Shown here: positions 24,001 to 27,000 of the stretch, in pieces | How the letters are laid out: the number at the start of each line of letters is the position of its first letter | Numbering within the stretch: the stretch's first letter is position 1 | Made by a program: the position numbers | NCBI RefSeq assembly: GCF_030013205.1 | Contig: NZ_CP122648.1 | DNA: 64,000 nucleotides | DNA from: Escherichia coli | Lineage (GTDB): Bacteria > Pseudomonadota > Gammaproteobacteria > Enterobacterales > Enterobacteriaceae | Direction: 5' to 3' (one strand)

Positions 24001-27000
24001 GGCGAACGACAGCAACCAGCTGTGGTTTAACGCCCTCCAGATTCTTTTCGCTGCGACGACTAAATCTGAATTTACCCGACATATTCACCTCAACAATGGA
24101 AAGATTTTTGTGACGTTCCCGCGCGCGCGTATCACCAGCACGCAGAACAGCAGATTAAAAAACACTTCAGGCCAGCCCGTTGCTAACGGGCGACCACACA
24201 GATAGCTGAGGGGCGCAAAGGCATACAGCAGCATCAGCAGCCAGGCCAGCCATGACATCAGCGGTTTATGTCTGGAATCACGGCGACGATAAAAAAAGAA
24301 CGTCAGCACGATAACCGTGCATAACGCCACATTCAGCAATCCGGGAAGGTTACTTAACATTGCCGCCTCCTCCGCCCCTCAGGCGGGAGAACAGGCCGGA
24401 CACCAGTGATGCGATATCCTGCTGGTGGATGAATGACAGAATCTTCACTGACACCACCGATACCAGCACCGCACACAGCGCATCTGCCGATGTACCGTCA
24501 TACCCTGTTTTTGATGTAATCCAGGCTGACAGCACACGTGCTCCCAGCACGCCGACGATAAACGACACCAGAAAATGCGCCGCCACACGCCAGGCGGAAA
24601 TCTTCTGCGGCACAGTTGCCACAAACAAAGCCCCCGCGAACGCACCAAACACAATCCCGAAATCCGTTCCGGTGAACAGCCCGAATACCGTCGCCCCTCC
24701 GAGCGCAGCCGCCGTGCCGGAACCGGATAAGGGTTCAGACATACTTTTTTCTCCTGTAAATAAAAAAGGGCCACCAGCGGCCCGTAAAAAAACAACACCC
24801 CGTCAAAGGCACCCGCAGATACCTTTTGTGTGGTGTATTCAGATTTGACATACGCTGAGCAGGGCGAAGAAATGAAAAAGGCCCGCAGTAGCGAGCCATG
24901 AAGAAACTGAATAAAAAAAACCGCCTGGTACGGCGGTTAAGATGAATTTCCAGGTTTTGCTTAATACGTGATTAATCTCAACGTTTTTTATAGATGTTAA
25001 CAACATCGGAATGATGCATCACCGGCCCTGTCAGGAAATACAAAATCTCCACCGATAATGCACCATTACGCTGTTGTAAAAAGACAGCACTGGACTGTAA
25101 CCGATATCACGTATTACAGAACAGGATGTGGATAAAGATTCAGGAAAACATCCCACATATAATATGTCAGTGCCCAAAACAACTTGGTATCGTCTACTGC
25201 TGGAGCGGGTAGCGGGAATCGAACCCGCATCATCAGCTTGGAAGGCTGAGGTAATAGCCATTATACGATACCCGCATACTATGCGGTCTTCAGTAATCAC
25301 ACGAATTACCGTGAAAGCCAGCACTGGTCTTTCCGACGGTAGTAACACCCCTGTGAACACCAAAATAACCGTCTTCCAGACCGACGAGAATACTAACGAC
25401 ATTTTTTCAGATATCAAAAATATATTTTGTTTTTAGTTTTTAATATATGTATGCATCTGTATCAGAAATATACAATTTATATCATTACTAAATTAAAAAC
25501 ATTTCTCTGACGTCTGATTAAAACGTTCCTGTTCCAGTTCCGCGCCAATCACACATGGTCATTGCGTTTTACCAGTCCATCGCCACTATCAGGCTGACCA
25601 GGGGACGCCCCACCCGAACTGCTGAGAATGCCAGGCACACAAAGAATAATGCCCGCCAAAGCGTTCCTGCATACAATGACTGCAAAATTCAGTTATTCTT
25701 GAGCGGAGCCAGAACTCATCTCACTGAATGCAGCCATCCTGTAACCTTCCGGGGTGACCCCAAAATAACGCCTGAATACACTGATAAAATAAGATGTATT
25801 ATTATAGCCACACTGCACAGCGATTCTGTTGATGGCACAGCTATATTGATGCAACAGCATTGCTGCCATTCTCATTCTCTCCGTAAGCAACAACTCACTG
25901 AAACATGTGCCTTCTTCTTTCAGTCTTTTTTTTAACAAACTTTCACTCATACATAACCGTGATGACACATCTCGCAGAGTCCAGTTTGCTGCAATGTCTG
26001 TATGAAACAACGCACCAAGCCTGCCGCTGATAGTACTGATACACGCGGTCATAAACGACGAAAACATTTTATCTGATGAAAAAAACGCCAGACACGAAAA
26101 GGAAAGCATTTCCGCTAAATTGTCCGTATGAATCTTTTCCTCATAAAGATAATCAATCAGGATGCCCATCAATTCTGGCCTGGGAAAACTCATGCAAAGA
26201 TATCGTGGCATTTTCCGGACTAAAACAACATCCTGTTTTACCCCACTACGCAACAGGTAACGGCTAATTGTCGATTCACTGAGACTTATACGCCGAAAAC
26301 ATTCAGAAAAGGGCAATAACGGTCCAGCCCCTCCCCTGACAAGAAGTGCACTACCACTTTCCAGAGAGAGTACTTTTCCTTCGAAGAGCACAACAAACGG
26401 GGAATGAACAAAAATAACAGAACAGGCCTCATTCATATCAATATCCCTGACATTACTGGTCGCAAGATAAGTATATATCACTTTACAAAAATGCAAGCCG
26501 TGAGCCCCGAATTCACGACCACCAGCGTGTTTACTGTACTGCACCAGGTTTACAGGTACAAAAAACCGCTCGACGGCGGGTTTAAGCTGTGTGGCGAAGT
26601 AACCACTCTTAACAGATTAAGATAAAATTTGCGGACCGCGGTAATTTTTTTTGCTAAATTAAAGCCATATAAAAAATAAGATCCATAAGAAATTATTAGT
26701 ATACTAAGGTTTAACATGGCTACTATTGCGCAATCAAAGAAACAAAAAAAACTTAAAATTGGTTTTTACACCAGCAGTTCTGGGACTATCCGCAGCCATT
26801 CAGTTGCTAAGCAAGCAATTGAAAATCTGTATAATACTTGCGTAACCGTTACGAATAATCATTTTGATACCATCTATAGAAATAAAAAGTTAAAAATAGC
26901 TTTTATAAATAAAGATACAAAAGCTAAATATTTCTTCGGCTACATGTCATGCTCACGAGAAGAGTATCTCCTTCCTTATATTGGTGATGAACACTGGAAT

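Follow-up and report, generated by a model that had tools for sequence, protein, structure and literature searches.

The DNA analyzed here is a stretch of 64,000 nucleotides from Escherichia coli contig NZ_CP122648.1 (RefSeq assembly GCF_030013205.1), referred to as the window. It carries a defective lambdoid prophage at dusA, of a kind resident in porcine enterotoxigenic and Shiga toxin-producing E. coli (ETEC and STEC). Between the late antiterminator gene Q and the lysis genes of this prophage lie a gene for an AraC/XylS-type regulator and a gene for tRNA-Gly(UCC) (Table 1). The original prediction had placed both in this slot and in the orientation of the late transcript, and gene order and strand bear it out: Q, the AraC gene, the tRNA, holin1, holin2, and the M15 endolysin gene are all on the minus strand. 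The identity, position, intactness, selection, distribution, and modular history of the two elements follow directly from the comparisons below. By analogy with its characterized relatives, the regulator is most likely an activator of host acid-resistance genes.

The regulator had been predicted as a protein of 283 residues. An open reading frame (ORF) of this length is present (25693-26544, minus strand, GTG start at 26544), and in identical genomes PGAP assigns these coordinates to an AraC family transcriptional regulator (WP_236265347.1), but the true protein is probably 247 residues long. Homologs at 76-87% identity are all 245-247 residues in length and begin with MNEACSV or MSEACSV, at the equivalent of Met37 of the longer frame; sister alleles are called at 744 nt by PGAP. 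An AGGGA Shine-Dalgarno-like motif stands at the right distance before ATG 26436, and no such motif could be read before GTG 26544, which lies just 3′ of a terminator T-run. As the homologs start at Met37 and AGGGA precedes only ATG 26436, the latter is almost certainly the true start, and GTG 26544 was rejected. PGAP lengths for the gene vary with the sequence upstream (247, 283, or 315 residues, the last two from frames of 852 and 948 nt; compare 6049-6792 of locus L005 and 5394-6341 of locus L021), and the longer calls are probably start-codon artefacts.

No frameshift, stop codon, or truncation was found on aligning the AraC gene with its homologs, which removes disabling mutation as an objection to the predicted regulator. 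The ratio of nonsynonymous to synonymous substitution rates (dN/dS, Nei-Gojobori), calculated against two alleles of 89% nucleotide identity, is 0.26-0.30, and lower (0.20-0.23) in the DNA-binding half. With a dN/dS of about 0.3, the gene is under purifying selection.

The C-terminal domain, of approximately 100 residues, contains two helix-turn-helix motifs. Pfam matches to the 283-residue protein (HTH_18, 5e-15; HTH_AraC, 1e-9 and 3e-3) fall within residues 183-269, the C-terminal 90 residues or so, and the closest structural counterparts listed here are the DNA-binding domain of GadX (PDB entry 3mkl, residues 139-242, E = 5e-24) and Rns (6xiu, E = 6e-18), in agreement with the Rns/PerA/GadX-like domain originally predicted. 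The best NCBIfam model is YdeO (NF007407), at 143 bits against a cutoff of 348, aligning residues 38-266 of the 283-residue ORF to positions 2-228 of the 253-position profile; GadX scores 104 bits (cutoff 500) and HilD 92 bits. Equivalog-level scores to YdeO or GadX were thus not reached and, because the scores fall far below these cutoffs, the protein represents a distinct subfamily and not an ortholog of a named member. In PHROGs, it matches phrog_1450 (function unknown) over its full length with 197 bits.

The homology search identified PatE, YdeO, and AppY as the closest characterized relatives. Full-length blastp alignments were obtained with ECs_0287 of the Sakai prophage Sp1 (39% identity, E about 1e-53 to 2e-52), YdeO (35.5%), and AppY (31%), the matches to PatE, YdeO, and AppY covering residues 1-232 and thus including the N-terminal domain. 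EnvY (39%) and YbcM (25%) match in the DNA-binding domain only. ECs_0287 is probably the PatE ortholog, as it is the only AraC-type gene in Sp1/OI-8; no annotated AraC gene was found in Sakai Sp6 or in the corresponding EDL933 region (OI-50). The first recognition helix, SESLLKKRLKEEG, is invariant across the subfamily and common to YdeO, AppY, and PatE; the second helix-turn-helix carries an invariant CGY..SYF motif, and an N-terminal CSV motif is conserved. When the PDB was searched with a family profile, CsvR (9gfp) was matched over residues 18-234 (E = 1.5e-30), Rns (6xiu) with E = 4.5e-29, and ToxT over residues 25-233. Judged by sequence comparison, the closest full-length relatives are the YdeO/PatE/AppY group rather than Rns/PerA.

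Each of these relatives resembles the regulator in part. PatE (Z0321 of OI-8/CP-933H; probably ECs_0287 in Sakai Sp1) is likewise a prophage-encoded AraC/XylS protein of 247 residues, but its gene lies beside an insertion sequence (IS) at the distal end of a short cryptic prophage, outside the Q-to-holin slot, and 39% identity is too low to presume the same targets. The K-12 acid-stress regulator YdeO shares the MxxxCSVIF N-terminus and the recognition helix of the present protein; to our knowledge, ydeO is not prophage-borne in K-12. AppY is a prophage-encoded AraC/XylS activator, whereas its gene lies at the right end of DLP12, past tail-fiber remnants, and not between Q and the lysis genes. 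GadX matches in the DNA-binding domain, and Rns, CsvR, and ToxT match over most of the protein in the profile search; all four differ in being chromosomal or plasmid-encoded virulence or acid regulators whose N-terminal similarity is weak, and a fatty-acid-type ligand as in Rns and ToxT cannot be inferred for the present protein. The subfamily is uncharacterized, with at most about 40% identity to the characterized members compared (PatE, YdeO, and AppY; PsrA and PsrB lie outside this comparison).

Prophage-borne AraC regulators of the YdeO/AppY/PatE branch, and tRNAs in late operons, are already well described. AppY (from DLP12), PatE, and PsrB are direct activators of gadE and/or hdeA that increase acid resistance, and PsrA and PsrB repress type III secretion through GadE/YhiF (PMC10057817; PMC10877973; PMC8565820). 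PatE activates gadE, gadBC, and hdeAB (PMC10877973); AppY directly activates gadE and other acid-stress genes, and a role in stress responses has been reported for it (PMC10057817). The suggestion that a prophage regulator of this kind could rewire acid-resistance or virulence regulons accordingly has direct precedent in AppY, PatE, and PsrB (PMC10057817; PMC10877973).

The tRNA-Gly(UCC) was recovered, at the predicted position, both by ARAGORN, for which it is the sole tRNA in the window, and by the Rfam covariance model (RF00005, 65.6 bits; gathering score 29). Its fold is a cloverleaf, with a UCC anticodon and an encoded 3′ CCA, as expected of a glyT-type elongator tRNA-Gly. A permissive Rfam search of 24600-28200 returned this tRNA only, apart from an antisense match to a plastid family that was rejected as chance. 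The sequence is 97% identical to host glyT, from which it differs by two changes, C6 to U and G67 to A; because positions 6 and 67 pair, the changes are compensatory and the acceptor stem is preserved. Glycine identity is determined by discriminator U73, the pairs G1:C72, C2:G71, and G3:C70, and anticodon positions C35 and C36. The discriminator, first three acceptor pairs, and anticodon loop are all the same as those of host glyT.

Integration at tRNA genes is common and, given the 97% identity to chromosomal glyT, the copy could be imagined as a leftover attachment site, or host DNA from an aberrant excision, with no decoding role. This is highly improbable. The gene is full length with its CCA and stands in the middle of the late operon, away from the prophage ends; it is flanked by phage sequence that other phages conserve, with a methylase gene upstream and holin1 downstream; and its mature sequence is identical to a tRNA-Gly of the LT-IIb prophage. 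As the U6:A67 variant is common to both, the gene represents a phage glyT lineage, not a recent capture from the host. With its flanks, it is found in approximately 384 of 5,426 complete E. coli genomes. A role in codon supply fits the codon usage, without being proved by it: GGA and GGG, the codons that the tRNA reads, make up 42% of Gly codons (27.9 per 1,000) in 29 genes of the closely related W13-16 prophage copy (locus L001) and 24% (14.7 per 1,000) in 11 flanking host genes, a contrast drawn, within this one related strain, from about 7,000 codons of the prophage and 2,900 of the host. In holin1, 10 of the 19 Gly codons are GGA or GGG.

Regulator and tRNA are separate elements: the AraC gene is cargo, and the tRNA is part of the backbone of the holin1-type lysis module and was not acquired with it. 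Sister AraC alleles remain homologous up to 25645, which is 48 bp beyond the stop codon. From there towards the tRNA, 25276-25550 is 85-86% identical to the methylase-to-tRNA-Gly interval of KS-NP019 and WAT; in KS-NP019, Q is followed by cargo and then by methylase, tRNA-Gly, holin1, holin2, and endolysin genes. The SerU-LTIIb prophage has the methylase gene followed by tRNA-Arg/tRNA-Gly and tRNA-Thr/tRNA-Gly, each pair before a holin1-type gene, and in cdtI, strain 298, and KS-NP019 a methylase gene occupies the place of the AraC cassette. This methylase-tRNA-holin1 order, and the occurrence of the tRNA in some 384 genomes against 22 for the AraC allele, identify the latter as rarer cargo that displaced the methylase gene. 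In keeping with a moron, the cassette deviates in composition (GC content 42-45%, against 52-58% in neighboring phage genes) and is absent from otherwise similar phages. An IS66-like stretch at its 3′ edge may be a scar of its arrival.

The same tRNA placement, downstream of Q and pR′, upstream of holin, and on the late strand, is seen in Stx phages and LT-II prophages. The SerU-LTIIb prophage has the identical tRNA-Gly sequence upstream of holin1, and phiSTEC1575-Stx2k has an AraC-type gene, tRNA-Met/Arg/Arg, and stx2k in that order. The present locus differs from these in having a single tRNA and no toxin gene.

Table 1. Features of the Q-to-lysis slot and of the prophage ends, in window coordinates
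Feature	Position	Strand	Evidence
dusA fragment	~41708-41812		Annotation of ETEC4079 region
Late antiterminator Q gene (quuD-like, PF06530-type)	28128-28505; PGAP 28128-28493	-	ORF; PGAP antiterminator Q family
Bidirectional terminator-like hairpin (AAAAAAGGGCAtttcTGCCCTTTTT)	28102-28126	.	Read from sequence; between Q stop codon and end of convergent module
Opposite-strand module: DUF6731 protein (313 aa) and small membrane protein (123-147 aa)	26716-28104	+	ORFs, PGAP
Conserved backbone element, hairpin and T-run; probably the early transcribed part and terminator of the late operon	26565-26625	-	Conservation; terminator pattern
5′ leader of AraC cassette	26437-26505	-	Alignments; TTGCAT...TGaTATATAct and AGGGA
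AraC/XylS-family regulator, YdeO/AppY/PatE/GadX branch, 247 aa (start almost certain)	25693-26436	-	ORF, Pfam, NCBIfam, homologs, dN/dS, structure matches
Possible IS66-family transposase fragment	25577-25646	.	Matches annotated IS66 transposase genes of many genomes (70 bp, 80% identity, E = 2e-6); weak
Leader of tRNA block, with last ~66 bp of displaced DNA-methyltransferase gene	25276-25550	-	Similarity to KS-NP019, WAT
tRNA-Gly(UCC), phage-lineage copy of glyT with U6:A67 and encoded CCA	25201-25275	-	ARAGORN, Rfam, fold, alignment
Three intrinsic-terminator-like hairpins, tRNA to holin	24938-24919, 24897-24880, 24783-24768	-	Pattern scan
holin1	24350-24742	-	ORF, PGAP; lysis cassette phrog_198 (holin)
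holin2	24085-24360	-	ORF, PGAP
M15 peptidase endolysin	23705-24082	-	ORF, PGAP
Integrase	9196-10293		Annotation of ETEC4079 region

The AraC allele with its linker occurs in 22 of the 5,426 complete genomes, in all of which the reading frame is intact and 99.8-100% conserved. Their hosts are pig, wild boar, or feral pig (20 genomes) and human (one), with restricted metadata for the remaining one; this association needs de-replication, because a single sequencing series contributes much of the porcine signal. Three Q contexts accompany the allele: a quuD-like Q together with the DUF6731 module, quuD together with an ompC-like porin gene, and a ydfT-type Q. It is carried by prophages at several chromosomal positions, of which dusA and the yjjG-prfC interval were identified as integration sites. 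Alleles of 89% nucleotide identity are carried by approximately 42 genomes, mainly bovine.

This conservation argues against the regulator and tRNA being inert, unexpressed passengers that a decaying prophage has kept by chance. The state of the prophage, in which the head genes and most tail genes are gone and the terminase is truncated, would allow such a reading, as would the possible IS scar beside the cassette. An intact frame in at least three prophage contexts and at two integration sites, with a dN/dS near 0.3, and a tRNA in which a compensatory change leaves every stem paired and which hundreds of prophages conserve nevertheless make it very unlikely.

Relatives of the regulator recur in the same part of the prophage genome. 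The XJ6-3 allele (86% identity) lies directly before holin1, and the 08-00022 allele (87%) follows a DUF1133-type Q and is accompanied by TerB and IraM genes. A relative of 243 residues and 36% identity stands immediately before the holin gene in Lambda_2G7a-type phages and DLP12-like prophages, and that of phiSTEC1575-Stx2k (38%) is downstream of Q, with several small ORFs between, and just before tRNA-Met/Arg/Arg and stx2k. The mEp332 relative and PatE (39%) are found at prophage ends. The late-operon slot is therefore a habitual, though non-exclusive, home of this regulator branch. As a separate observation, iraM, which encodes an anti-adaptor that stabilizes RpoS, is found alongside YdeO-like regulators in the Q-to-holin slot of both 08-00022 and phiSTEC1575-Stx2k, a co-location that may not be accidental.

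The porcine distribution, together with the profile matches to CsvR and Rns, could alternatively point to a virulence activator of Rns/CsvR/PerA type that acts on adhesins or toxins of porcine ETEC and STEC, for instance on fimbrial operons, and not on the acid-resistance island. We consider such a role unlikely, since full-length similarity is greatest to YdeO, PatE, and AppY, and the DNA-binding domain is most like that of GadX; sister alleles of 87% identity come mostly from bovine and environmental isolates and from strains other than ETEC; in the contexts examined, the cassette has no fimbrial or toxin genes linked to it; and the pig bias may reflect one sequencing project.

Read in the late direction, Q is followed by a bidirectional terminator-like hairpin and by a convergent 1.4-kb module that encodes the DUF6731 protein, lies between Q and the AraC gene, and is separate from the AraC/tRNA unit. 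The Q region is 99.8% identical to that of phage cdtI, as is the DUF6731 module to cdtI orf54/orf53; the module matches phrog_7651 and phrog_8552 (both of unknown function), and in RM10740 and DLP12 an nmpC/ompC-type porin gene takes its place. It is a candidate lysogenic-conversion or exclusion module, and PADLOC returned no match for it, for the AraC protein, or for the phosphatase described below.

Beyond the module lies a conserved element of approximately 50 nt, CTGTTAAGAGTGGTTACTTCGCCACACAGCTTAAACCCGCCGTCGAGCGG, which ends in a terminator hairpin and is followed by a T-run. Its 39-nt core is found with at most three mismatches in K-12 DLP12, cdtI, strain 298, RM10740, and XJ6-3, between reverse-strand and late cargo; the DLP12 copy (13224-13262 of locus L016) lies between reverse-strand nmpC and essD, 137 bp upstream of essD. 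Parts of the element are present, unannotated, in more than 2,800 E. coli genomes. In ETEC1730 and LR-21-1, which have a ydfT-type Q, the upstream part differs, and the hairpin, T-run, and next ~60 nt are shared. A Q-type-specific segment followed by a common terminator is the expected appearance of a pR′/qut/tR′ unit, as in lambda and phage 82, and for this reason a late promoter and terminator of pR′/qut/tR′ type, serving a quuD-type Q, are probably located at ~26700-26565. The DLP12 lysis operon has been reported to be under the control of its Q protein, in work cited in PMC7918800. A pR′ directly downstream of Q was rejected as the simplest model, given the bidirectional terminator and convergent module that follow Q and the position of the Q-type-specific element beyond them; candidate -35 and -10 hexamers read by eye in DLP12 were also dropped, as a 4-nt insertion disrupts their spacing in the window, and no promoter is named. 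The AraC gene and tRNA thus lie downstream of Q and of the predicted position of pR′/tR′, upstream of holin, and on the late strand, as late-operon cargo should.

Homology to cdtI ends at approximately 26506, and a 70-bp leader follows, to ATG 26436, that is at least 93% conserved in AraC alleles of 87% identity. Within it, TTGCAT and TGaTATATAct can be read against consensus as a possible weak or extended -10 promoter. A pattern scan found a further promoter-like site in the leader of the tRNA block (25417-25390), and 10 terminator-like sites in the region against 4.0 +/- 2.0 in shuffled sequences, with none in the interval from the end of the AraC gene to the tRNA. Past the AraC stop codon, the nearest terminator-like sites are those at 24938-24768, beyond the tRNA. 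Because such sites lie between tRNA and holin but not between AraC gene and tRNA, expression of regulator and tRNA without holin in the lysogen is conceivable.

From these features, a model can be proposed in which the slot carries two late-operon accessory elements, a trans-acting AraC activator of host acid-resistance genes and a tRNA-Gly that supplies codons; on balance, we favor this model. The AraC cassette (~26505 to 25645) would be transcribed at a low level in the lysogen from its own weak promoter in the leader and, after induction, also by Q-modified RNA polymerase reading through from pR′, while the three terminators before holin would keep the lysis genes silent in the lysogen. The regulator would bind DNA through its two C-terminal helix-turn-helix motifs and activate sigma-70 promoters in trans, the likeliest targets being gadE and hdeAB of the host acid-fitness (AR2) set, by analogy with AppY, PatE, and PsrB; these targets are proposed because of the family to which the protein belongs and its conserved recognition helix. 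The tRNA would raise decoding capacity for GGA and GGG.

Several points weigh against this model. Identity to the characterized relatives is 31-39%, with scores far below the YdeO and GadX cutoffs, such that target specificity could differ. As the prophage is defective, late-operon read-through may rarely happen. The pR′ assignment draws on conservation and position only, and the leader promoter is a loose match to consensus that does not appear in the list produced by the formal promoter scan. Lastly, the host already carries glyT, and the codon contrast comes from one related strain.

AraC-family proteins often control neighboring genes, and the regulator might instead act locally, on the phosphatase gene, the DUF6731 module, or the lysis cassette, with little effect on the host regulon. 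In all examined contexts of the exact allele, the block of AraC gene, tRNA, holin1, holin2, M15 endolysin, and phosphatase does move together. However, alleles of 87% identity are accompanied by a GH108 endolysin and Bor, or by TerB and IraM, and have no phosphatase; the upstream neighbor varies between the DUF6731 module, a porin gene, and Q itself; and the characterized relatives act on distant host promoters (PMC10057817). A purely local role is thus quite unlikely, and trans activation of acid-resistance genes remains the preferred reading. The phosphatase gene, predicted by PGAP to encode an Ais/PmrG-like lipopolysaccharide core heptose(II)-phosphate phosphatase, is located just past the lysis cassette (23058-23633, plus strand), has a GC content of 30-40%, and accompanies the AraC-tRNA-holin block in every context of this allele examined.

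It is interesting to speculate that the pig allele is a host-adapted module that has spread between prophages of different Q, and that in the lysogen a single AraC-tRNA transcript, running to the terminators before holin, might couple a change in acid resistance or colonization to GGA/GGG decoding and so contribute to fitness in the pig gut. This extension is doubtful at present.

The prophage itself is shared with other porcine isolates. The 3.9 kb around the locus are 100% identical to porcine E. coli chromosomes, including O139:H1 strain W13-16 (wild boar) and a Belgian pig ETEC series, and window positions 8000-23000 are 100% identical to ETEC4079. At 20465-22079 (minus strand), the large terminase gene is cut at its C-terminus and adjoins a tape-measure fragment that lacks its N-terminus, which indicates that the head genes and most of the tail genes have been deleted; the dusA prophage retains an intact immunity region, Q, and lysis cassette. 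In W13-16, a second defective prophage, located between yjjG and prfC, also contains the Q-to-lysis segment; it was rejected as the context of the window, as the window corresponds to the dusA copy seen in ETEC4079. ETEC4079, ETEC4069, ETEC6333, and ETEC6334 have two identical copies of the segment, with AraC gene and tRNA, in a dusA prophage and a yjjG-prfC prophage; the ETEC6334 matches are at 4.33 Mb and 4.72 Mb.

Three further features were observed outside the slot. In the yjjG-prfC prophage of W13-16 (6378-8277 of locus L001, outside the window), a SLATT-domain gene overlaps a reverse-transcriptase gene, a possible defense system; neither gene is present in the window. Near the prophage end, by the dusA fragment, a Panacea-domain protein gene and an adjoining small ORF (40466-41454, minus strand) may form a toxin-antitoxin pair. 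In host DNA outside the prophage, Rfam identified naRNA4 (CssrE, RF02564) at 54057-54127 on the minus strand, with 79.8 bits.

In practical terms, the analysis corrects the annotation of the regulator to 247 residues, in place of 283 or 315, and indicates where the late promoter and terminator of quuD-type prophages, DLP12 among them, probably lie. In the literature collection searched, no paper linking edema-disease or O139 prophages with an AraC regulator was found. The prophage regulators AppY, PatE, PsrA, and PsrB plug into the acid-resistance and type III secretion networks of E. coli. Members of the present subfamily consistently occupy the late-operon slot that, in Shiga-toxin phages, carries stx, and one allele is found chiefly in edema-disease and ETEC strains from pigs, some of which hold it twice. 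Should it control acid resistance or colonization genes, the regulator would be a candidate fitness factor for pig pathogens, and another case of regulatory lysogenic conversion.

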